From IMG/VR virus record IMGVR_UViG_3300003324_000282, positions 1 to 55,920 of that record: a stretch of 55,920 nt of DNA; one strand, 5' to 3'. A program made the position numbers and the translations under genes. This document shows, one piece after another, positions 4,150 through 55,415 of the stretch (position 1 is its first letter; every line of letters starts with the position of its first letter). The notes under the pieces are model-generated. The model did not search any database. It had not been told where the DNA came from and was given only the letters and a program-made list of their open reading frames with translations. The stretch is from a virus. Lineage: Duplodnaviria > Caudoviricetes.

Positions 4150-4590
4150 TTGTTTACAAGTGAAGATCTCAAAGACGTAGTTGCTGATACAGATGATTGG
4201 GAGAATACTGCAAGAGCAAATCGAACTTTGCTTCGTGAGTTCAGAACTCTTCTTGGTCAACCGGAATTTTCCGATGTCGAAACTCTTGGCGAACTTAAGC
4301 AACGATTGGCAAATAGTGCTGCTGATAGTTATGGCGTGGTTCGAAGTAATCGTGATAAGCTAATTGCTTTGATTGATAGCGCTCGAGAAGATGGCTCGAA
4401 TTACGAACAATTCAACGACTCACTTTTCCACCTGTTTCGACTGACTGATATGCAGGTCATGTTCGTTCGTGGTATGCGAGAGTTCTTTGGCTCGCCTGTT
4501 GTCACTGAGCTCTCGAACATGATGGACAACGAACGAATTGCTGCTATGAACGAAATTCTTACGAGTGAAGATGACGAAGCAGGTACCTAA
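4150..4590 (+). CDS. Hypothetical helical protein
   Basis: TTG start after TAAGGAG; fills the gap between neighbours. Confidence 0.65.
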   Translation: MFTSEDLKDVVADTDDWENTARANRTLLREFRTLLGQPEFSDVETLGELKQRLANSAADSYGVVRSNRDKLIALIDSAREDGSNYEQFNDSLFHLFRLTDMQVMFVRGMREFFGSPVVTELSNMMDNERIAAMNEILTSEDDEAGT

Positions 4591-5486
4591 TGAAAAGTAC
4601 TTGGACTGAACGAGCCAAGGCAATTTCTTTTGATCCATCTGGTTTGGTAGTTGTCAAAGGCATCAACGTTCAAACAGCTTTGGAAGAACTTGATAACTAT
4701 GTATCCAGCCTTGCGGGGGGTGGAGGTGATCCAGGATCTCCGGGTGCTGACGGTGAATCAGCATATCAGATCTGGCTTGACCTTGGTAACACTGGGACTG
4801 AAGCAGATTTTATTGCTTCTTTAACAGGTCCTGAAGGTGAATCGGCATATCAGGTCTGGTTAGATCTAGGCAACACGGGGACTGAAGCAGATTTTATTGC
4901 TTCACTTCGGGGACCAGCGGGTACTGATGGAACAAATGGTGTTGATGGTACCGATGGGGCGTCAGCTTATCAGATTTGGTTGGGTCTTGGTAACACAGGA
5001 ACTGAAGCAGATTTTATTGCTTCTTTAACAGGTCCTGCTGGTGTTGACGGAGCAGATGGAGGCATTGAGATTGCTGCGGCAATTATTAACGCCAACTATG
5101 TGCCTACAAATGCACAAGCAGATGTTCCTGGTGCGCAATTAGTAGTTCCTGCCAATAGCGGTCCATTTGAACTTGAAGTTCTTGGTGGTGTATACGGCGG
5201 TATTACTACAGGAACCCAACCAGCTAATACTGTTATTCAAATTCAATTACAGTTTGTTGATGAGGCAAATACCATTGTTGCATTCTCAGCAGCAGCCACA
5301 ATTGCAACCGGTACATCTTATTCTACAGTAGTTACTATTCCAATCGCACAATCTTTTGGAAATTTTACCACCGATAAGACTTATCGTCTGCAAGCTCGTA
5401 TGACAGCTCTGGCAAATGGTGCCAGTAGTGTACTTAACTTTGGCGGTATCTTCCCTGCACGTACAATGCGGGCAGTTCGGCGATGA
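4590..5486 (+). CDS. Collagen-like/repeat fibre protein
   Basis: Three GESAYQ(I/V)WL.LGNTGTEADFIASL.GP modules separated by G-x-x triplets; beta-rich C-terminal domain. Confidence 0.7.
   Translation: MKSTWTERAKAISFDPSGLVVVKGINVQTALEELDNYVSSLAGGGGDPGSPGADGESAYQIWLDLGNTGTEADFIASLTGPEGESAYQVWLDLGNTGTEADFIASLRGPAGTDGTNGVDGTDGASAYQIWLGLGNTGTEADFIASLTGPAGVDGADGGIEIAAAIINANYVPTNAQADVPGAQLVVPANSGPFELEVLGGVYGGITTGTQPANTVIQIQLQFVDEANTIVAFSAAATIATGTSYSTVVTIPIAQSFGNFTTDKTYRLQARMTALANGASSVLNFGGIFPARTMRAVRR
4752..5040 (+). repeat. Three copies of an ~84-bp coding repeat
   Basis: Core ACTGAAGCAGATTTTATTGCTTC is identical in three copies (~4797, ~4881, ~5001). Confidence 0.85.
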
Positions 5487-6263: not shown

Positions 6264-6665
6264 ATGTCCGACCTTCAACATTTTGGAATTAAAGGTATGC
6301 ATTGGGGTGTTCGCCGCCAACGTGCAGCCGATGGAAAAGTTAGGGGTCCTTCTAAATCTACACGAGAAGGTGTCTCTTCCGATGCAGCAAGAGCTCATGA
6401 AGCTAGAGCAAAAGTAAAATCTCATGGATTAGATTCTTTGTCTAATCAAGATCTTCAACATTTAGTTAGTCGTATGAATCTCGAACAACAATATTCTAGA
6501 TTAACTAGTGATAAAACAAATGTTGCTAAAGTAAAGAAGGGCCGTAACGCTATTAAAGAAGTTATTGGCGTTGCCATTATGGCCAAGCAGGTTCATGAGA
6601 TTGTCAACAGTCCTATGGTTAAGGACATTAAAGTTGCCGTGGGTAAAACTAAAAAGGGCGGATAA
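6264..6665 (+). CDS. Small basic protein with N-terminal HFGIKGMHWGVRR motif
   Basis: RBS TAAGGAGG before ATG 6264; motif shared with 8913, 9286 and the RNAP N-terminus. Confidence 0.8.
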   Translation: MSDLQHFGIKGMHWGVRRQRAADGKVRGPSKSTREGVSSDAARAHEARAKVKSHGLDSLSNQDLQHLVSRMNLEQQYSRLTSDKTNVAKVKKGRNAIKEVIGVAIMAKQVHEIVNSPMVKDIKVAVGKTKKGG

Positions 6666-6679
6666 ATCGAGGAGGTGAC

Positions 6680-7153
6680 ATGGATCCAGCCGATGCGTCT
6701 GCAAGTGATGGTGTTATGCTTGCTTTCCTTCCTACCAATAGCGATTGGTCAAGAGTAGATATTCCGCATATGACTTTGGTTTATGCTGGGACAGTAGATA
6801 CCTTCTCGCCGACTGATCTAAATAATCTTGCCAAAGATGCAGCGTCTTTAGCTTTATTAGCAAGTCCATTCTACTTAACAGTAAGAGGTGTAGTCAAGCT
6901 AGGACCAGATGATGATCCAGTTCAGGCGCTGTCTTTTCAAGCTACACCAGATCTTTGGGCTATGCGTAAGTTTGTGGAAAAGTGGAACAAGAGTGAGTTT
7001 CCATTCAATCCACATGCAACCATTGGACCATACAATGCCATGTCGACGTATGTAGAATCTGTACCTCGTTCAGTATACTTCGATCGCCTTTACCTTGGTT
7101 ATGGAGATGAAGGACTTACATTTAATCTTCGTCGAGGTAATGGATCATATTAA
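6680..7153 (+). CDS. 2H phosphoesterase (Acb1/LigT-like)
   Basis: Two HxT motifs, PHMTL and PHATI, about 80 aa apart; RBS GAGGAGG. Confidence 0.8.
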   Translation: MDPADASASDGVMLAFLPTNSDWSRVDIPHMTLVYAGTVDTFSPTDLNNLAKDAASLALLASPFYLTVRGVVKLGPDDDPVQALSFQATPDLWAMRKFVEKWNKSEFPFNPHATIGPYNAMSTYVESVPRSVYFDRLYLGYGDEGLTFNLRRGNGSY

Positions 7154-7170
7154 ATAGAAAGGAGGTTGGC

Positions 7171-8916
7171 ATGGCGCTGTCAAACAGAGCTACTCCGTAT
7201 TATTACGGTCAGTTCCGTGATGCGGTTATTCGTGGAGAGATTCCAGTAAATCGTGAAGTCTCTATGGAGATGAACCGTATTGATGCGCTCATTGCCAATC
7301 CAAACATCTATTACGATGATATGGCTGTAGAAGGATTTATTCTTTATTGTGAGAATGAGCTTACTCTTACTGATGGTTCAGATCTTCATTTACTTCCTAG
7401 TTTTAAAGTATGGGCTGAACAGATCTTTTGTTGGTATTATTTCGTAACTCGAAGTGTATATGAACCATCAAAAGACAATCATGGTGGACGTTATGTAACG
7501 AAGACAATTAAGATGCGTTTAACAACCAAGCAATACCTTATTGTGGCTCGAGGTGCTGCTAAGTCAATGTATGCTGAATGCATTCAGTCGTATTTCTTGA
7601 ATGTAGATACAGCAACAACACATCAGATTACAACCGCGCCTACCATGAAACAAGCCGAAGAAGTAATGCAGCCATTTCGAACTGCTATTACCAGAGCTCG
7701 TGGCCCGTTGTTCAAGTTCCTTACTGAAGGATCGATGCAAAACACTACTGGATCTAAAGCCAATAGAGTTAAACTTGCATCGACAAAGAAAGGTATTGAA
7801 AACTTTCTTACTGGTTCTTTGCTTGAGATTCGCCCAATGACAGTGAATAAACTTCAGGGTCTTCGTCCAAAGGTTTCTACTATTGACGAATGGTTGTCTG
7901 GCGACATTAGAGAAGATGTTGTTGGTGCAATTGAGCAGGGTGCATCTAAACTTGACGACTATTTGATTGTTGCTATCAGCTCAGAAGGTACTGTTCGAAA
8001 TGGTTCTGGCGATACCATCAAAATGGAACTAGCTGACATTCTTAAAGGTGAGTATGTAGCACCACACATTTCTATCTGGCATTACAAATTAGATGAGCTG
8101 GAAGAAGTCGGCGATCCGGCAATGTGGCCAAAGGCTAATCCGAATCTTGGCGCCACTGTTACGTATGAAACGTATCATCTGGACGTGGAACGGGCGGAAA
8201 AAGCCCCCGCTTCGCGGAATGACATTCTTGCCAAACGATTCGGAATTCCGATGGAAGGTTATACTTACTTCTTTACTTATGAAGAAACTCTTACTCATCG
8301 TCGGCAAGATCCTCGAGGAATGCCTTGTTCACTTGGCGCTGACCTTTCCCAAGGTGACGACTTCTGCGCTTTTACTTTCTTGTTTCCATTGCGTAATGAG
8401 AGATTTGCAATCAAAACTAGAAGTTACATTACTTCTTTGACTTTGATGAAACTTCCTGGTGCTATGCGTCAGAAGTATGACGAGTTTATCAAAGAAGGTA
8501 GTCTTCATGTTTTGGACGGAACTGTTCTTGATATGATGGAGGTGTATGACGATCTCGATGCATTCATCATTGCAGAAGAATACGATGTTCGAACACTTGG
8601 GTATGACCCATACAACGCCAAAGAGTTTGTTACTCGATGGGAAGCAGAGAATGGTCCTTTTGGCATCGAGAAAGTCATTCAGGGTGCTAAGACCGAAACG
8701 GTCCCGCTTGGTGAGCTGAAGAATTTAAGTGAGGAAAGACTTCTCCTTTTTGATCAGGAGCTCATGTCGTTTGCTATGGGTAACGCCATTACTATTGAGG
8801 ACACCAACGGTAACAGAAAACTTCTTAAGAGACGACAAGAAGAGAAGATCGACAACGTTGCTGCCTTGATGGATGCATACGTTGCCTACAAAGCAAACAA
8901 GGAGGCATTTGAATGA
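7171..8916 (+). CDS. terL: Terminase large subunit
   Basis: ARGAAKS Walker A, IDEW Walker B, KANPNLG, GADLS..DD nuclease, KIDNVAALMDA C-terminus. Confidence 0.95.
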   Translation: MALSNRATPYYYGQFRDAVIRGEIPVNREVSMEMNRIDALIANPNIYYDDMAVEGFILYCENELTLTDGSDLHLLPSFKVWAEQIFCWYYFVTRSVYEPSKDNHGGRYVTKTIKMRLTTKQYLIVARGAAKSMYAECIQSYFLNVDTATTHQITTAPTMKQAEEVMQPFRTAITRARGPLFKFLTEGSMQNTTGSKANRVKLASTKKGIENFLTGSLLEIRPMTVNKLQGLRPKVSTIDEWLSGDIREDVVGAIEQGASKLDDYLIVAISSEGTVRNGSGDTIKMELADILKGEYVAPHISIWHYKLDELEEVGDPAMWPKANPNLGATVTYETYHLDVERAEKAPASRNDILAKRFGIPMEGYTYFFTYEETLTHRRQDPRGMPCSLGADLSQGDDFCAFTFLFPLRNERFAIKTRSYITSLTLMKLPGAMRQKYDEFIKEGSLHVLDGTVLDMMEVYDDLDAFIIAEEYDVRTLGYDPYNAKEFVTRWEAENGPFGIEKVIQGAKTETVPLGELKNLSEERLLLFDQELMSFAMGNAITIEDTNGNRKLLKRRQEEKIDNVAALMDAYVAYKANKEAFE

Positions 8917-9275
8917 TTGATGAAAAGCCTTCTTTTGAGCATCATGGTGTTAAAGGTATGCATTGGGGTGTTCGAACTCGTACTCAGTCTTCATATGGTG
9001 AAGCTAAAGCCAGAGAAAAGGAACGTGTAGCATCACTTAAACCTAGTCGTGTAATTTCAAGAAAGATTTCTGAAGTTACCGGCGATCCACGGTCAGCTGT
9101 TACTTTTGCTTCTGTTGCTGCTGTAGGAGTTGCATTTACTCAATCACCTCAAGCTAAAGCAGCAATGAAAATTTCTATGTCGAATGTTGGTAAAGCTGCT
9201 GGCAATAGAAACGTACAGCGAATTACGTTCAAAGCATTGAAGGGCGCTGGTAAACTTTACATGAAGACTAGGTGA
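8913..9275 (+). CDS. Small basic protein with N-terminal HHGVKGMHWGVR motif
   Basis: ATGA overlap with terminase; shared motif. Confidence 0.8.
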   Translation: MIDEKPSFEHHGVKGMHWGVRTRTQSSYGEAKAREKERVASLKPSRVISRKISEVTGDPRSAVTFASVAAVGVAFTQSPQAKAAMKISMSNVGKAAGNRNVQRITFKALKGAGKLYMKTR

Positions 9276-9285
9276 GGAGGTGACA

Positions 9286-9690
9286 ATGTTATATGAAGAG
9301 AAACCAACTTTAAACAATGCTATGATTCACTACGGTGTTCTCGGCATGAAGTGGGGTGTAACTCGTCAACAAGCTAGAGGTGGCGATATTCGTGCAGCAC
9401 GAGCAAGACTTGTTTTAGAAAGACAAAAAGTAAAACAAGCTAAACGAAAAGTAAGTGAAGCTAGTACTGCTAAAGATAAAGCTGCTGCAGCTCAGAAACA
9501 TGTTGATTTAAAAATGGGTTTATTAAACAATTCGGACAGAGTTATTGCTTCACGTCTGACTACTGGGGAGAAAGTAGCAACTGCACTTTTGTTTAGTCCT
9601 GTCGGTGCCGCCGCACTGATCGGTACTACATCTGCTACATCTCGACGAATTGAATATAAACAAGACAAAGGCAAGTATACTAAGACGTAG
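9286..9690 (+). CDS. Small basic protein with N-terminal HYGVLGMKWGV motif
   Basis: RBS GAGGAGG; shared motif; coiled coil and hydrophobic C-terminal segment. Confidence 0.8.
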   Translation: MLYEEKPTLNNAMIHYGVLGMKWGVTRQQARGGDIRAARARLVLERQKVKQAKRKVSEASTAKDKAAAAQKHVDLKMGLLNNSDRVIASRLTTGEKVATALLFSPVGAAALIGTTSATSRRIEYKQDKGKYTKT

Positions 9691-9720: not shown

Positions 9721-10989
9721 GTGTCAACAATCGGGTCTAGATTGAAGCACGCTTGGAACGCTTTTACCAATCAAGAGAGTTCACTTCAGTCATATGGCGA
9801 TGCGGTTTCATATGGTCGTCCGGACAGAACTCGACTTAGGATTCCAAATGAACGTTCTATCATCTCCTCTATTTATACGCGTCTTAGTATTGACGTTGCT
9901 GGTGTCGATATTCGTCATGTGCGCGTCGATGATAGCGGTCGGTTTAGTGGTGACATTGATAGTGGACTTAATAATTGTCTTACTGTTGAGGCTAATTTGG
10001 ATCAAGCGGCTCGAGCTTTTAGACAAGATCTTGCGCTAACGTTATTTGATAATGGTGCCGCGGCTATTGTACCGGTCGATACATCGTTAAATCCGCTTGT
10101 GACTGGTGGATACGATATTTTGAGTCTTCGTGTTGGTGAAATTATTCAATATATGCCTCGACATGTAAAATTGAATGTTTACAATGAAGCCATTGGTCGA
10201 CGTGAGCAAATTGTGCTTGAGAAAAAGTTTGTCGCGATTGTTGAGAATCCGCTATATTCTGTAATGAATGAACCGAACTCAACTCTTCAGCGCCTTATTC
10301 GAAAGCTAAATCTTCTAGACACGATTGATGATCAGTCTGGTTCTGGAAAACTCGATCTCATTATTCAGCTTCCATATGTAATCAAATCTGAATCAAGACG
10401 ACAGCAAGCCGAACAACGTCGTCAGGATATTGAGTTCCAGTTGTCTGGAAGTAAGTACGGCGTTGCTTATACAGATGGTACAGAAAAGATCACCCAGCTT
10501 AATCGACCTGTTGAAAATAATCTATTAAAACAGGTAGAGTATCTGGTCGAGATGTTGTATGGTCAACTTGGCCTTACGCCAGAAATTATGAACGGCACGG
10601 CCGACGAGAAGGCCATGCTGAACTACAACAGTCGTACGATCGAACCAATTCTAGATGCCATTGTTGAAGCAATGCGCCGTACATTTCTTACAAAGACTGC
10701 TCGTTCACAAGGTCAGACTATTGCATATTTCCGCAATGCATTTAAGCTTATTCCACTTAGTGAGATCGCTGAGATTGCTGATGTCTTTGCTCGGAATGAA
10801 ATCGCTACTTCCAACGAAATCAGACAAATTCTTGGATGGAAGCCTCATGATGACCCAAAGGCAGATCAACTTCGGAATAGCAATATGCCACAACCAGGGG
10901 ATAGTCCTCCGACAGATCCATTGGCAAAATTGAAAGAAATTAATAATTTAAAGCGAAGTATTCCGTCCCCGTCGGGGTCGGTTGAATAA
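9721..10989 (+). CDS. Portal protein
   Basis: 422 aa between terminase and capsid; HK97-like portal features (QLGL.PEI.NGTA, TIEPIL.AI, SNEIR..LG). Confidence 0.9.
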   Translation: MSTIGSRLKHAWNAFTNQESSLQSYGDAVSYGRPDRTRLRIPNERSIISSIYTRLSIDVAGVDIRHVRVDDSGRFSGDIDSGLNNCLTVEANLDQAARAFRQDLALTLFDNGAAAIVPVDTSLNPLVTGGYDILSLRVGEIIQYMPRHVKLNVYNEAIGRREQIVLEKKFVAIVENPLYSVMNEPNSTLQRLIRKLNLLDTIDDQSGSGKLDLIIQLPYVIKSESRRQQAEQRRQDIEFQLSGSKYGVAYTDGTEKITQLNRPVENNLLKQVEYLVEMLYGQLGLTPEIMNGTADEKAMLNYNSRTIEPILDAIVEAMRRTFLTKTARSQGQTIAYFRNAFKLIPLSEIAEIADVFARNEIATSNEIRQILGWKPHDDPKADQLRNSNMPQPGDSPPTDPLAKLKEINNLKRSIPSPSGSVE

Positions 10990-11014
10990 AACAGATACGG
11001 AAGGAGACAGTCCA

Positions 11015-13075
11015 GTGGAACCGGATTTCAGCGGTTACGCAACTAAGGCTGGTCTCAAGTGCTCCGACGGCCGGACAATTATGCCTGAGGCATTCAAAGA
11101 GATGGACGGAAAAACCGTTCCGCTCGTCTGGCAACACGGGCACAAGGACCCTTCAAATGTTCTTGGCCATGCCGTTCTCGAAGCTCGTAGTGATGGTGTT
11201 TATGCTCACGCGTTCTTCAATGATACTGAGCCGGCAAAACAGGCTAAGGCGCTTGTTGAGCACAAGGACATTACGTCTTTGTCTATTTATGCTAACAGTC
11301 TTGTTGAAAAGGGCAAAAAGGTATTTCACGGTGTTATTCGTGAGCTTAGTTTGGTTCTTTCCGGTGCCAATCCTGGTGCAGTGATTGACAATATTCGTAT
11401 TGCTCACAGCGATGACCCAGATGACATCGAGACGTTGGATGATGAAGCGATCATTTATACTGGTCTCGATCTCGTGCATTCTGATGAGGGTGCTGAAGCT
11501 GAGAAGAATGCTGATGGCGGGAAGAATGAAGAGAACGCTGAAGGCGGGAACAATGAAGAGAACGCTGAAGGCGGGAAGAATGAAGAGAACGCTGAAGGTG
11601 AAGAAAACGAAGATAATGCTGACAATGAAGAAGTTCAGCATGCTGCAACTAATGACAAAACCGTTCAGGATGTCTTTGATTCCTTTACAGCAGAGCAAAA
11701 GAAAGTTGTTCATTACCTGATCGGAGCCGCTCTCGAAGAAGCTGGCTCCACTGCAGAGCACTCCGACATGGAAGGACAGGAAAACATGGGAACGCGCAAC
11801 GTTTTCGAGCGAGATGGGAATGGCGGCGGTAGCACCGAGACGCATGAGCTGTCGCACGATGCCATCGCAGGGATTGTGGCAGACGCAAAGCGTCGCGGAT
11901 CTCTGAAAGCAGCTGTTGAAGACTATGCAATTCAGCACGGTATCGAGAACATTGACGTTCTTTTCCCGGATGCCAAGAACCTTGATGACGTTCCTGAGTG
12001 GGAGAAGCGTCGTACTGAGTGGGTTGCTGGTGTTTTGAACACTACTCGGCACACCCCATTCTCTCGGATTAGGACTCGTTCTGCTGATCTTACTCACGAA
12101 GAGGCTCGTGCCAAAGGTTACATCAAGGGTAATCTTAAGAAGGAAGAATTCTTCGGTGTTACAAAGCGTACTACCACTCCGACTACGATCTACAAGAAGC
12201 AGCAGCTTGATCGCGATGACATGCTCGACATTACAGACTTTGATGTCGTTGTCTGGCTCAAGGGTGAAATGCGTCTTATGCTCGAAGAGGAAATTGCTCG
12301 GGCTATTCTGATTGGTGACGGTCGAGACGTTGCTCACGAAGACAAGATCAAGGATCCGATGGGTGCTGCTGAAGGTGCTGGTATTCGTTCAATTCTGTAC
12401 GACCACGAGCTTTATGTGACGCATGTGAATGTTGGGCTGCCGGCTACCAATGCAGATTACAACGATGTCGTGGAAGCTGTCATGCGCGCACGTCGTTTCT
12501 ACAAGGGTACTGGTATGCCGAACTTCTACACGACAACTCAGACTTCGGTCGAGATGTTGCTGTCGAAGGACCAGTTTGGACGTCGTCGTTGGAACAGTAA
12601 GGAAGAGTTGGCTAACGCGCTGGGTGTTGGTCAGGTTATCGACGTTGAGGTCATGGACCAAGAGCCGGATCTGCTTGGCATCATTGTCAACCTTGCAGAC
12701 TACTCGGTTGGTACTGACCGTGGTGGCGACATCACCATGTTCGATGACTTTGATATCGACTACAACCAGTACAAGTACTTGATCGAGACTCGTCTGTCTG
12801 GTGCTCTTACCAAGATCAAATCTGCTATGGTTGTTCACCGTCAGGCTGTTGGTGACGTTCAGGTTACGCCGACTGCTCCGGACTTTGACGGCACGACAAT
12901 CACTATTCCGACGGATGCCAATGTCGACTACTTCGCTGATGGCTCACCGGTTGCTGACGCAGCCACGGTTCCGGTTCCGGCTGGAACCACAGTGGAGATC
13001 ACGGCTACTCCGACAGCTGGACACTTCTTCGCTACTAACGAAGAGGACCAGTGGAGCTTCACTAACAACGCCTGA
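11015..13075 (+). CDS. Prohead protease-scaffold-major capsid fusion with C-terminal Ig-like domain
   Basis: FSGYA, VPLVWQH, LSIYA, ELSLVLSGANPGA of HK97-family protease; acidic linker; HK97-fold capsid region; RBS AAGGAG before GTG 11015. Confidence 0.9.
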   Translation: MEPDFSGYATKAGLKCSDGRTIMPEAFKEMDGKTVPLVWQHGHKDPSNVLGHAVLEARSDGVYAHAFFNDTEPAKQAKALVEHKDITSLSIYANSLVEKGKKVFHGVIRELSLVLSGANPGAVIDNIRIAHSDDPDDIETLDDEAIIYTGLDLVHSDEGAEAEKNADGGKNEENAEGGNNEENAEGGKNEENAEGEENEDNADNEEVQHAATNDKTVQDVFDSFTAEQKKVVHYLIGAALEEAGSTAEHSDMEGQENMGTRNVFERDGNGGGSTETHELSHDAIAGIVADAKRRGSLKAAVEDYAIQHGIENIDVLFPDAKNLDDVPEWEKRRTEWVAGVLNTTRHTPFSRIRTRSADLTHEEARAKGYIKGNLKKEEFFGVTKRTTTPTTIYKKQQLDRDDMLDITDFDVVVWLKGEMRLMLEEEIARAILIGDGRDVAHEDKIKDPMGAAEGAGIRSILYDHELYVTHVNVGLPATNADYNDVVEAVMRARRFYKGTGMPNFYTTTQTSVEMLLSKDQFGRRRWNSKEELANALGVGQVIDVEVMDQEPDLLGIIVNLADYSVGTDRGGDITMFDDFDIDYNQYKYLIETRLSGALTKIKSAMVVHRQAVGDVQVTPTAPDFDGTTITIPTDANVDYFADGSPVADAATVPVPAGTTVEITATPTAGHFFATNEEDQWSFTNNA
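11504..11599 (+). repeat. 27-bp tandem repeat (~3.5 copies) encoding NAEGGKNEE
   Basis: GGCGGGAA(G/C)AATGAAGAGAACGCTGAA repeated in the acidic linker. Confidence 0.9.
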
Positions 13076-52229: not shown

Positions 52230-52728
52230 GTATCACTGGATCAACTATAGTGAGGAAAAATTAGAGCGTGTCTTTGTTGCACATGAAGCTGCTCGTCGAG
52301 GCAGTGATTTACATAATCTTGCACATGAAGCAATTCGACTTGGTGTTAAGCTTGCAGGTAGAAATACACTAGGCTTGTATGTTAATGATGCTATTGGTTA
52401 TCGTATGACCTGTGAACAAGTTTTATATTTTTCACCAAATGCGTTTGGAACCGCGGATACTATTTCTTTCCGTCGTAACAAGCTTAGGATTCATGATTTG
52501 AAAACTGGGGTCTATCCATGTTCTGAACATCAGCTTGAGGTTTATGCTGCTCTGTTCTGTCTTGAATACGGATTCAAACCAGCTAACATTGAGATTGAAC
52601 TTCGTATTTACCAGTCTGACGAAGCTCGTATTTATGAGGCTGACCCAGACATTATTACACACATCATGGATAGAATTATAACGTTTGACAAGAAGATCAA
52701 CGAACTTAGATTGGAGGCGATGTCATGA
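52171..52728 (+). CDS. Cas4/RecB-like PD-(D/E)XK exonuclease
   Basis: HAFLSPS..W, G..LH, FGTAD, IHDLKTG, QL.VYA. Confidence 0.8.
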   Translation: MNFNKHLDLVDQHAFLSPSKYHWINYSEEKLERVFVAHEAARRGSDLHNLAHEAIRLGVKLAGRNTLGLYVNDAIGYRMTCEQVLYFSPNAFGTADTISFRRNKLRIHDLKTGVYPCSEHQLEVYAALFCLEYGFKPANIEIELRIYQSDEARIYEADPDIITHIMDRIITFDKKINELRLEAMS

Positions 52729-55415
52729 TTCTAGAAGGCGAAGACGCACTCCAGCACTATGGTATTCTCCGCAAGTCAGGTAGGTATCCTTGGGGTTCTG
52801 GTGAAGACCCGGTTCAAAGAAGTAACACGTTTTTGGGTATGGTTGCCGACCTACGTGAAAAAGGACTCACCCCAAAAGAGATTGCTGTTGGGTTAGGTTT
52901 AGAGAACACTACCAATCTTCGTAATGTTACAACTATTGCTCGGGCTGAGAAGAAAGCCGCCGATGTCAGTATAGCTATTCGGTTGAAAGAAAAAGGCATG
53001 TCCAATATTGCCATTGGTAAACAAATGGGCGTTGGTGAATCTCAGGTTCGTGCATTGTTGAAAGCACATGAAGACGATAACTTGCATATTCTCAAAGCCA
53101 CTACAGAAGTTATCAAAAAACGTTGTGATGAAGTTAAGTACCTTGACGTTGGTACAGGTCAACAATATCATGTACCTACTGGTGTCAGTGAAAACAAATT
53201 CAAAGCTGCAATTGCTGCGCTTGAAGATCAAGGCTACAAAGTTCATTATCTTAAAGTTCCTCAATTGGGAACCACACATGAAACAACACATAAAGTCCTA
53301 GCACCACCAGGTGTACCATATTCTGAAGTCAGTAAGAATCGTGATAACATTCGTGGTTTTACTGAATGGACCAATGATGGTGGTAGGTCTTGGTTGGGCA
53401 TTGATCCACCAATTTCTATTAGTTCAAAGCGTCTTGGTATTCGATACAAAGAAGAAGGCGGCGCAGAAGCAGATGGTGTCATCTATGTTCGACCCGGTGT
53501 AAGAGACATTTCACTAGGTCGATCCCGTTATGCTCAGGTGCGTATTCAAATTGATGATACGCATTACATCAAGGGCATGGCAATGTACAAGGATGATCTT
53601 CCATCTGGAACCGACCTTCTTTTCAATACGAATAAGTCGAACACTGGAAATAAATTAGATGCTTTGAAGCCACTGAAGAATGATCCTGACAACCCATTTG
53701 GATCTACTGTTCGTCAGCTTAAAGATGAAAATAAAAAAGTATACTCGGCAATGAATATTGTTTATGAAGAAGGTACCTGGGAGCGTTGGTCTAATAAGTT
53801 GTCTTCACAGTTCCTATCCAAGCAAACTCCGGATCTGGTTAAGAAGCGGCTTGACCTAACGTTTGAAAAGAAGAAGTCTGAGCTAGATGAAATCATGAAG
53901 TTGACAAACCCCGCAGTTAGAAAGCATCTTCTATTCAAGTTTGCTGAAGAGGCCGATTCTTCTGCGGTTCATCTCAAGGCGGCTGGGTTCAAACGTTCTG
54001 CTGCACATGTTATCTTACCTATTACTTCTATGAAAGAAACAGAAATCTATGCACCTAACTTCAAGAATGGTGAACGAGTAGTTCTTATTCGTCATCCGCA
54101 TGCAGGTGTATTTGAGATTCCAGAACTAACTGTTAATAACCGTCATCCAGAAGCTAGAAAACTTCTTGGTCCTACCAAGGATCGTCCTGAGCCGGTTCGA
54201 GATGCAGTAGGCATTCATCCCAAGGTTGCACAACATCTTTCTGGTGCAGACTTTGATGGTGATACGGTTCTGGTAATTCCAAACAATGATAGAAGAATTA
54301 AGAACTCTCCACCATTAGCTGGGTTAAAAGACTTTGATCCGCAGATATACAAGATTCCTGATGACAGTCCAATACCCAGAATTAAACCAAAGACAAAGCA
54401 ACTACAAATGGGTGATGTTTCAAATTTGATCACCGATATGACTATCAAAGGAGCACCCCCATCCGAGCTTGCTCGAGCAGTTCGGCATTCTATGGTAGTT
54501 ATCGATGCTGAGAAACATCATCTAAACTATAAGCAATCAGCCATTGATAATGGTATTTCTCAACTTAAGAAGCGGTATCAAACAGATGCTGCTGGTAACC
54601 CTTCTTCTCGAGCTGGTGCTTCAACTTTAATTTCTAGAGCTAAGAGTCGTAAAGAAGTACCAGAGAGAAAACAAGGGTTTAAGATTAATCCTGAAACTGG
54701 TGCCAAAGAGTATCGTTATACTGGTGCAACTAAGATAGATGCAAAAGGTAGGGTTGTCCCTCGTACAACCAGGTCTACTAAGATGGCTGAAACTAATGAT
54801 GCCCGTACTCTGTTGTCTAAGGGTGGTGGTACAAAGGTAGAGCACATCTATGCAGACTATGCTAATAGACTTAAGACTATGGCTAATGATACGAGGAAAG
54901 AGTACATCAATACAAAGCCTACGCCATATGATAGTTCAGCAAGAACTGCCTACTCAAAAGAGGTGGCCTCTCTTAACGCAAAGCTCCACCTGGCTTTAAG
55001 AAACAGCCCCCTTGAAAGACAAGCCCAGGTCCTAGGAAACCGGGTCTATAAACAAAAGCTCAATGACCAACCAGACATGGATGAGTCTGAGAAGAAGAAA
55101 GTAAAAGCTCAGGCTCTAATGGAAGCTAGAACTAGGGTTGGTGCACATAAAGAACAGATCAAGATTGATGAAAATGAGTGGGCTGCTATTCAAGCAGGTG
55201 CTTTCCATAACAACACTCTCACTAAGATTCTAGACAATGCAGATCTTGATACAGTGAGGAAGCTAGCTACACCTAAGGAAACAGTACTAATGACTAACTC
55301 CAAGACAGCTAGAGCACAGTCTATGCTTAAGGGTGGTGCCACACAGGCTGAGGTTGCTGAGGCTCTTGGTGTATCACTTAGTACTCTTAAGCGTAGTCTA
55401 GGTGGTGAAGGGTAA
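52725..55415 (+). CDS. Single-chain two-barrel DNA-dependent RNA polymerase (YonO-like) with terminal HTH domains
   Basis: DG.I..QVRI..KGM first-barrel motifs; LIRHPH and SGADFDGDTV (54249-54263 encode DFDGD); HTHs GMSNIAIGKQMGVGESQVR and GATQAEVAEALGVSLSTLKR. Confidence 0.8.
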   Translation: MILEGEDALQHYGILRKSGRYPWGSGEDPVQRSNTFLGMVADLREKGLTPKEIAVGLGLENTTNLRNVTTIARAEKKAADVSIAIRLKEKGMSNIAIGKQMGVGESQVRALLKAHEDDNLHILKATTEVIKKRCDEVKYLDVGTGQQYHVPTGVSENKFKAAIAALEDQGYKVHYLKVPQLGTTHETTHKVLAPPGVPYSEVSKNRDNIRGFTEWTNDGGRSWLGIDPPISISSKRLGIRYKEEGGAEADGVIYVRPGVRDISLGRSRYAQVRIQIDDTHYIKGMAMYKDDLPSGTDLLFNTNKSNTGNKLDALKPLKNDPDNPFGSTVRQLKDENKKVYSAMNIVYEEGTWERWSNKLSSQFLSKQTPDLVKKRLDLTFEKKKSELDEIMKLTNPAVRKHLLFKFAEEADSSAVHLKAAGFKRSAAHVILPITSMKETEIYAPNFKNGERVVLIRHPHAGVFEIPELTVNNRHPEARKLLGPTKDRPEPVRDAVGIHPKVAQHLSGADFDGDTVLVIPNNDRRIKNSPPLAGLKDFDPQIYKIPDDSPIPRIKPKTKQLQMGDVSNLITDMTIKGAPPSELARAVRHSMVVIDAEKHHLNYKQSAIDNGISQLKKRYQTDAAGNPSSRAGASTLISRAKSRKEVPERKQGFKINPETGAKEYRYTGATKIDAKGRVVPRTTRSTKMAETNDARTLLSKGGGTKVEHIYADYANRLKTMANDTRKEYINTKPTPYDSSARTAYSKEVASLNAKLHLALRNSPLERQAQVLGNRVYKQKLNDQPDMDESEKKKVKAQALMEARTRVGAHKEQIKIDENEWAAIQAGAFHNNTLTKILDNADLDTVRKLATPKETVLMTNSKTARAQSMLKGGATQAEVAEALGVSLSTLKRSLGGEG

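Follow-up and report, generated by a model that had tools for sequence, protein, structure and literature searches.

Why should three small proteins that do not otherwise resemble one another, encoded on either side of the large terminase gene of one phage, begin with the same short peptide, and why should a related peptide stand at the start of that phage's RNA polymerase (RNAP)? We addressed this question in IMG/VR virus record IMGVR_UViG_3300003324_000282, which was analysed whole (55,920 bases, estimated to be 94% complete; hereafter the window) and is a siphophage genome with nearly all long open reading frames on one strand. The window phage is a member of the lineage described in the sections used here of Koert et al. 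(bioRxiv 10.1101/842583), which is common to actinophages (Streptomyces BI, Arthrobacter, Gordonia and others) as well as Lactococcus 1706-like and Faecalibacterium phages. Our analysis suggests, at somewhat better than an even chance, that the peptide (the tag) is a site at which the prohead protease cuts after histidine and also a signal that loads cargo, including the RNAP, into the head for ejection. The whole reading rests on comparative inference.

Three dissimilar small proteins share an N-terminal tag

The three tagged genes of the window all lie on the + strand. Protein 1 (6264-6665, 133 amino acids (aa), pI 10.5) carries its tag at residues 4-20 (6273-6323), protein 2 (8913-9275, 120 aa, pI 10.9) has ..PSFEH↓HGVKGMHWGVR at 8937-8987, where the arrow marks the proposed cut here and below, and protein 3 (9280-9690, 136 aa from the GTG at 9280 or 134 aa from the ATG at 9286, pI 10.4) has ..NAMIH↓YGVLGMKWGV at 9313-9372. 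All three match Pfam DUF7211 (PF23847), a 25-position profile for a family of unknown function with a gathering cut-off of 27 bits, for which the literature searched gave no function. Their scores are 37.6, 33.8 and 34.9 bits respectively (E 1.4e-9 to 2.1e-8), or 39.7, 35.8 and 37.2 bits when the DNA is scored. In six-frame regular expression searches the canonical G[IVLM].GM.WG occurs exactly three times in the window, each time N-terminally on one of these proteins, and a looser H-aromatic-G...WG adds a single occurrence at the start of the RNAP. Outside the tag the three proteins show no mutual similarity (pairwise BLASTP E = 1.2, 1.6 and 26), and through the tag they match 12, 6 and 10 PHROG families. 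An earlier note on this DNA had described three dissimilar small basic proteins with a common N-terminal tag and this description holds, as do the N-terminal sequences that it quoted for them and for the RNAP, all of which are present at their positions.

The body of protein 1 is a conserved helical module (LSNxELQxLVxRMNLEQQYSRL), and in an alignment of 46 homologs H6, G8, G11, W14 and G15 of the tag are invariant. In its AlphaFold model the tag is coil with a pLDDT of 51-56 followed by four helices, and such a low-confidence coil fits what would be expected of a linear motif. Gly/Ala-rich hydrophobic segments are found in protein 2 (residues ~61-79), in protein 3 (residues 99-117) and in several of the polyprotein modules described below; our guess is that they would be fitting for ejection proteins that act on membranes. 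The idea of a type VII secretion WXG signal was rejected, as the tag has W-G rather than W-x-G and is an N-terminal coil rather than the turn of a helical hairpin.

Spread of the tag and the junctions of polyproteins

The canonical tag, (D/E)-x-(F/Y)-L-x-H-(Y/F/H)-G-V-K-G-M-K-W-G-V-R-K, corresponds to DUF7211. A profile built from 14 tags of the window and of phages Kenosha, Circum, P078 and HotFries was run against the protein database and matched 7631 of 8000 scored candidates at E <= 0.001. The best 120 of these proteins are long and carry two to six tags each, with 76 of their 360 tags lying within 40 residues of the N-terminus and 284 being internal. Between the tags are modules such as GNAT acetyltransferase, 2H phosphoesterase, CW_7 and 'Gln_amidase' along with many that are unassigned, and in the polyproteins inspected the usual last module is the one that forms protein 1 of the window, recognisable by its RMNLEQQY motif. 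Across 408 distinct tag copies the residue before the proposed cut (P1) is His in all 408, P3 is L, I, F, V or M in all 408, and the residue after the cut (P1') is aromatic in 404. These copies were found through the downstream G..G(M/Q).WG, so the count of invariant His is not circular.

Cultured relatives show the same architecture. Kenosha gp13 runs from a 2H phosphoesterase through a middle region to a tag (residue 350) and the protein-1 module, four different tagged proteins (Kenosha gp15-18) are encoded in the terminase-portal interval, Circum gp7 has two tags and P078 gp08 has one at residue 45. The definition of polyvalent proteins (at least two unrelated effector domains in a single chain whose gene accompanies head or transfer genes) applies to the relatives Kenosha gp13, Mossy P0083, P0008, P0011 and P0018; the tagged proteins of the window are single-module and fall outside it.

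Upstream of internal tags, counting from the tag His, positions -9 to -13 show a 2.7- to 4.6-fold enrichment in His, and a His at -9 to -14 is seen in 112 of 254 non-identical internal junctions where ~13% would be expected from composition. The context of this upstream His is typically linker-like (VSHSD, ELKHVD, VTHAD, KHSE). A frequent junction therefore runs from the module end through phi-x-H (phi being hydrophobic), (S/A/D/V)(D/E) and ~6 residues to (D/E)-(F/Y)-L-x-H and Y-G-V-K-G-M-K-W-G.

A related form was seen in a charged coiled-coil protein encoded between the portal and protease-capsid genes of Circum (gp11, L022:7441-8052) and Kenosha (gp20, L021:8667-9275). These start ..AEDFLEHYSSQ.. 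and ..LSELFHEYDP.., which is the first half of the tag (leader and phi-x-H-aromatic) with no GMKWG. These proteins might represent a scaffold or a further, third group of tagged proteins, and the window has no gene of this type.

A prohead protease made as one chain with the capsid protein

The protease that would act on these sites is encoded at 10982-13075 (+ strand) in a single 697-aa chain in which an S78 prohead protease is followed by an acidic linker and a capsid domain; a protease-capsid fusion is mentioned by Klyczek et al. 2017, a paper that contains no proteomics. The HK97-type S78 serine protease domain (10982-11407, residues 1-142) matches PF04586 with 27.4 bits over residues 15-102 (cut-off 21) and also phrog_3270, and its H52, H54 and S101 are invariant among 51 sequences. 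It ends at the first phi-x-H site, IAH142↓SD, and is followed by a scaffold-like linker (11408-11938, residues 143-319) with 48 Asp and Glu among 177 residues and a pI of 4.1. Further candidate cuts would fall after H166 (11477-11479), H220 (11639-11641), H260 (11759-11761), H292 (11855-11857) and H319 (11936-11938). Within the linker an acidic repeat, (N/K)NEENAEGG, occurs about three times at 11516-11630 (residues ~179-216) and is missing from ~90% of the 124 homologs introduced next (gap fraction 0.88-0.97).

In order to assess conservation we assembled 124 fusion homologs comprising the window, three cultured phages and the best 120 database hits, which have 56-75% identity to the window. 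Across this set the linker varies greatly, yet several His are retained: H142 in 124, H166 in 123, H292 in 124, H319 in 123, H220 in 90 and H262 in 96. At H142 P3 is I, L or V in all 124, and at each of the linker His sites P3 is aliphatic in at least 96% of sequences, with P2 variable and P1' being S, G, A, D or E. Three other conserved His (H116, H244, H288) lie outside the phi-x-H pattern, within folded or helical elements. All six phi-x-H sites that had been claimed for the linker are present; five (H142, H166, H220, H292, H319) have an aliphatic P3 in the window and the fourth one listed, AEH260-S, departs from the others in having Ala at P3 and aligning less cleanly.

The capsid domain (11939-13075, residues 320-697) has the HK97 fold with an extra C-terminal beta domain from residue ~623. 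No PDB relatives of the fusion were found by sequence. An AlphaFold model of residues 260-697 (mean pLDDT 68.7) gave the HK97 fold, with a VIA-align Z of 12.9 and a root mean square deviation of 3.5 over 203 residues against the gene transfer agent (GTA) capsid 6tb9, a Z of 11.5 against HK97 1ohg_A, and a Foldseek E of 6e-6 to the Bxb1 and GTA capsids. Model residues 78-363 align with HK97 125-383, and the aligned range in T5 is 181-457. Taking the mature HK97 capsid to start at Ser104 and the mature T5 capsid to start near residue 160, the equivalent positions are approximately fusion residue 316, three residues from H319↓G320, and fusion residue 315. The last site thus lies ~3-5 residues from the equivalent of a mature N-terminus, in agreement with the earlier suggestion that it marks the start of the capsid domain, and the predicted mature N-terminus is GIENIDVLFP.

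The linker pattern, phi-x-H↓(S/G/A/D)(D/E), resembles the specificities of T4 gp21, which cuts at (L/I)-x-E, and of herpesvirus assemblin, which cuts at (V/L)-x-A↓S, these proteases being of one clan. The literature searched contained no His-specific prohead protease, the prohead protease cleavage work found there being on T4- and phiKZ-type (x-E) enzymes. A complex prediction for the protease domain (residues 1-138) with the first 45 residues of protein 1, run without controls, gave ipSAE values of 0.01 and 0.00, which speaks neither for nor against binding.

A variant tag on the RNA polymerase

The RNAP gene (52725-55415, + strand) encodes an 896-aa YonO/RdRP-like single-subunit enzyme that has helix-turn-helix (HTH) domains at its two ends. 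Over its full length it matches phrog_4291 'RNA-dependent RNA polymerase' (1263.8 bits), and the DxDGD loop of two-barrel polymerases is present in the window (DFDGD, residues 509-513) and in all 150 representatives compared. No PDB relatives were found by sequence. The sections of Koert et al. (bioRxiv 10.1101/842583) used here propose the lineage protein as a YonO/crAss-like RNA polymerase and report an HHpred link to PF05183.

The N-terminus of the window RNAP, ALQH↓YGILRKSGRYPWGSG at approximately 52749-52796, belongs to a variant with the consensus L-x-H-Y-G-(T/I)-x-R-x-S-G-R-Y-P-W-G-S-G. It has no DUF7211 match at E <= 0.01, the Kenosha RNAP scores 14.6 bits (cut-off 27), and the canonical regular expression is found in none of the 150 RNAP representatives. 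An hhalign comparison of 355 DUF7211 copies with 57 RNAP N-termini nevertheless gave a probability of 95.7% (E = 8.5e-9, 15 columns). The likeness lies in the first half, the acidic/aromatic leader and L-x-H-Y-G-(V/T), while the second half differs (RxSGRYPWGSG in the RNAP, KGMKWGVRK in DUF7211). The claim that the RNAP carries the tag is therefore better put as a related variant that shares its first half and falls below the family threshold.

The variant is widespread. A phmmer search of 1.84 billion representatives gave 2212 RNAP relatives at E <= 0.001, and among the best 150 the variant is N-terminal in 147, with the key position being His in 140, P3 being L, I, F or V in 145, and the position of the His 4-41 residues from the start in 145. 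In P0252 and P0262 the tag is at residues 171-172, behind an N-terminal 2H phosphoesterase, and since this is the arrangement of Kenosha gp13 the RNAP tag occupies the architectural position of DUF7211. The P0252/P0262 junction has an additional phi-x-H 11 residues upstream (FTLH↓DTVDDVLEH↓YG); in P0262 Q replaces the tag His and the site 11 residues upstream is LIH↓N. A homolog in Siphovirus contig89 from a human saliva virome (L006, 1492-4152) is annotated 'tail fiber protein' (gp106) and has the tag variant DILKHYGTKRHSGRYPWG.

In P0267 (1789 aa), one of the three representatives lacking the tag, a Phage_portal domain (76-389) replaces both the tag and the first HTH; a long middle region rich in Ala, Lys and Pro leads on to the RNAP core (1057-1787). 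By the reasoning applied to polyvalent proteins in the sections used here of Iyer et al. 2017 (PMC5512222), in which fusion to portal or MuF is an argument for head location, this fusion would point to the head. A search for loci of this type gave 11 IMG/VR loci and 1 GTDB locus, all with ordinary tagged RNAPs of ~900 aa. P0287 (1809 aa), a single sequence on a single contig, has the middle and RNAP in common with P0267 and a different N-terminus.

Association of the tag with one head module

From its left end the window encodes a peptidase, an HNH endonuclease, an endolysin, a connector-like virion protein, two tail-fibre-like proteins and a hydrolase, followed in order by tagged protein 1, a 2H phosphoesterase, the large terminase (TerL), tagged proteins 2 and 3, the portal and the protease-capsid fusion. 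The LigT-like 2H phosphoesterase (6680-7153, + strand; PF13563 E = 2e-7) is free-standing and untagged in the window, and in relatives this domain is fused ahead of a DUF7211 module (Kenosha gp13) or an RNAP (P0252, P0262). TerL (7171-8916, + strand; phrog_9 E = 6.7e-113) has tagged genes on either side, the portal gene is at 9721-10989 (+ strand; PF04860, 56.2 bits), and the RNAP gene is the penultimate gene at the right end.

We examined the 80 IMG/VR loci that best match a tag pattern built from this lineage, which is a biased sample on account of that query. A TerL, portal or protease-capsid homolog of the window is encoded at 79 of the 80, and where at least 6 kb lies downstream of the last tag the fusion is present in 40 of 41. 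The head module is likewise represented at all 13 loci with the tagged polyprotein P0008, each having a homolog of TerL, the portal or the protease-capsid fusion, and TerL there is up to 79% identical to that of the window. The order where the flanks reach (L036) is TerL, polyprotein, portal, fusion, so proteins 2 and 3 of the window fill the slot of the relatives' 1,400-1,600-aa polyprotein. On 23 of 80 tag-bearing contigs the RNAP gene is 3-9 kb upstream of TerL, which makes it contiguous with the late/head region on a circular or concatemeric map. Among 50,697 cultured-phage records the RNAP is found in 250, the fusion in 244 and the protein 1 family in 212, with near-identical counts per host genus, and a less sensitive tblastn with the short tag gave 192 records; such similar counts are a lineage signature rather than independent co-occurrence. 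The tag is found almost only beside this head module, in a large siphophage lineage of Actinobacteria and Firmicutes whose capsid is made as an S78 protease/acidic linker/HK97 fusion.

The portal N-terminus RLKH↓AW was tried as a further site and rejected because it is not conserved in Kenosha, Circum and P078. In Lactococcus phage P078 gp10 (L023:5181-6476) is a 'tail length tape-measure protein' in RefSeq. Its gene lies in the interval from the terminase to the protease-capsid gene, the slot of the portal in the window, Kenosha and Circum, and the product is probably a portal that was mis-annotated. One of the tail-fibre-like genes of the window (4590-5486), which is upstream of the head genes and apart from the tail genes, encodes three copies of a ~35-residue unit (..SAYQ(I/V)WL.LGNTGTEADFIASL.GP.G..) after a Gly-rich stretch.

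A proposed mechanism and the alternatives

Under the reading that we favour, which the earlier note had put forward and which the comparisons support in part, the protease domain would cut after His at phi-x-H sites, as the conservation of these sites suggests. Cuts at up to six of them, the last at H319↓G320, would free the capsid domain of protease and linker, consistent with conservation and with the position of the fold. Every tag would hold such a site and internal tags would often have another ~10 residues upstream. If tagged proteins and polyproteins are substrates of this protease they must sit inside the assembling prohead, in the company of hundreds of tethered protease domains. More speculatively, docking could be the task of the conserved YGVKGMKWG, just beyond the cut, together with the basic stretch next to it; these might bind the protease or the acidic linker and so couple recruitment to cleavage. 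Mature cargo would then stay in the head and exit with the DNA. It would include the RNAP and small basic proteins with Gly/Ala-rich hydrophobic segments and, in relatives, GNAT, 2H-phosphoesterase and deamidase-like modules; an injected RNAP could transcribe early genes, as in N4 and crAss-like phages. A stronger form, which we put forward only tentatively, is head loading by substrate tethering, in which a capsid-borne His-specific protease would capture tagged proteins and cut them after assembly, making the cargo programmable. Among that cargo would be enzymes of anti-defence type (2H phosphoesterase, GNAT, deamidase-like), small membrane-active proteins and a YonO-like RNAP that starts transcription. 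The sections used here of Iyer et al. 2017 (PMC5512222) propose that 2H enzymes degrade nucleotide immune signals.

A number of observations weigh against our reading. The strongest conservation (YGVKGMKWGVRK) follows the proposed cut, unlike in the T4 targeting sequence, and a cut after His would give mature proteins beginning with Phe, His, Tyr and Tyr (P1' at 6282, 8943, 9331 and 52758). N-terminal Phe and Tyr are destabilising N-end-rule residues in bacteria, and a mature N-terminus of this kind would argue against cleavage there or would set a limit to how long injected cargo lasts. Only 44% of internal junctions contain a His at -9 to -14 and more than half lack it, the junctions of P0010 have M or Q upstream (AMSD, SMSQ, AMAQ) with the tag His retained, 7 of the 147 RNAP tags lack His, and the 2H phosphoesterase of the window is untagged. 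Only one sequence, from a single 18.6-kb contig, shows the portal-RNAP fusion, and the association of tag and head module is lineage-wide and largely one evolutionary event rather than many independent ones. The literature searched contains no virion proteomics for the lineage and reports no virion RNAP in it.

Some of these points would sit as well with a tag that is not cut at its own His, the invariant His-aromatic-Gly instead forming part of a surface that binds some partner (for example portal, capsid interior, acidic linker, terminase, DNA or a host factor), and the polyproteins being split only at the upstream phi-x-H-(S/A/D)-(D/E) or, in some phages, at M/Q sites. The most conserved residues do come after the His, and P0010 keeps its tag His although its junction sites are of another kind, so that this His could be a binding residue rather than P1; P0262, which also favours this view, has Q for the tag His and a phi-x-H site upstream. 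The aromatic P1' of the tags also differs from the small or acidic P1' of the linker sites, though P1' already varies among the linker sites themselves. We regard an uncleaved docking motif as rather unlikely given that an aliphatic P3 and a P1 His are equally strict in tags and linker sites, and that free-standing proteins retain the conserved leader before the His while having no upstream site.

A phage or host protease could instead separate and activate the polyprotein modules in the cytoplasm, with the products including the RNAP remaining unpackaged. The junction architecture calls for no more than a protease, packaging being unnecessary, the RNAP might serve as an ordinary polymerase of the middle or late phase, like YonO in SPbeta, and the lack of virion proteomics in the literature searched leaves room for this. 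The sole protease seen in the head module is however fused to the capsid protein, and HK97-type proteases act inside proheads. In addition the tagged genes lie among lysis genes, terminase and portal, single-module proteins keep the tag with nothing to split off, and one RNAP is fused to a portal domain; a role in processing only is therefore in our view an unlikely explanation. That the tag is a remnant of duplication or a chance resemblance with no common function might be suggested by the three genes being neighbours in one cluster, but we find this scarcely credible and rejected it in view of the absence of similarity beyond the tag, Pfam E values of ~1e-8 to 1e-9, and the recurrence of the tag on GNAT, 2H and other domain families in 408 distinct copies with the His invariant.

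Should the reading of the tag as a cleaved head-loading signal be right, it would give a function to DUF7211, a Pfam domain matching 7631 of 8000 scored candidates (E <= 0.001), and a prohead-protease specificity, phi-x-His, of a kind not found in the literature searched. The YonO-like family (2212 representatives at E <= 0.001) would become predicted virion enzymes in siphophages of Actinobacteria and Firmicutes, which would change the understanding of a large phage RNAP family, and the tag would be a candidate portable signal for packaging foreign proteins into these phages. The prediction for virion proteomics is clear and cheap, with many cultured SEA-PHAGES isolates and dairy Lactococcus phages at hand. 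If the reading is false, the tag still marks module boundaries in a large class of phage polyproteins.

Comparison with known systems

The capsid-targeting sequence (CTS) of T4, found on the internal proteins IPI-III and Alt and removed by the prohead protease gp21, is the parallel drawn in the earlier note. As there, the tag is a short N-terminal leader on unrelated cargo that is basic or enzymatic and presumed to be ejected, the putative site combines a hydrophobic P3 with a fixed P1, and the protease is of the same assemblin-like clan. The predicted P1 is His here and Glu in T4, the best conserved residues are on the P' side and would be retained after maturation, the tag also stands between polyprotein modules, and the protease is covalently fused to the capsid protein. 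The T4 parallel is thus apt as regards a short leader on unrelated proteins and inapt in that YGVKGMKWGVRK would stay after the cut and that 284 of 360 copies are internal. The propeptides of phiKZ-like ejection proteins are also among the closest known systems.

Polyvalent proteins as treated in the sections used here of Iyer et al. 2017 (PMC5512222) are similar: these effectors have several modules (GNAT, 2H phosphoesterase, peptidase-like), their genes lie among head genes, and packaging and injection are predicted for them. Here by contrast the modules are punctuated by a defined tag and His sites, and processing is attributed to a capsid-fused S78 protease rather than to the zincin-like peptidases of that work (PMC5512222), the text of which contains none of 'KWG', 'Arthrobacter' or 'Streptomyces phage'. 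The window itself differs again in having single-module versions.

Virion-packaged RNAPs are known in the N4 vRNAP and in the RNAP of crAss-like phages, which is related to RdRPs. The enzyme of the window resembles these in that it is encoded by the phage, consists of one chain with the DxDGD two-barrel signature and would be delivered along with the DNA, the YonO and crAss motifs being cited in the sections used of Koert et al. (bioRxiv 10.1101/842583). It differs in coming from a siphophage of Gram-positive hosts and in being a ~900-aa enzyme with HTH domains, and its packaging is inferred only from the tag, the gene position and one portal fusion.

The cargo-loading peptides of encapsulins are usually C-terminal and uncleaved and are unrelated to the tag in sequence, which sets them apart from the arrangement proposed here. 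Like them, however, the tag would be a short linear peptide that directs diverse cargo into an HK97-fold shell, and the capsid model aligns with encapsulins at a VIA-align Z of 10-11.

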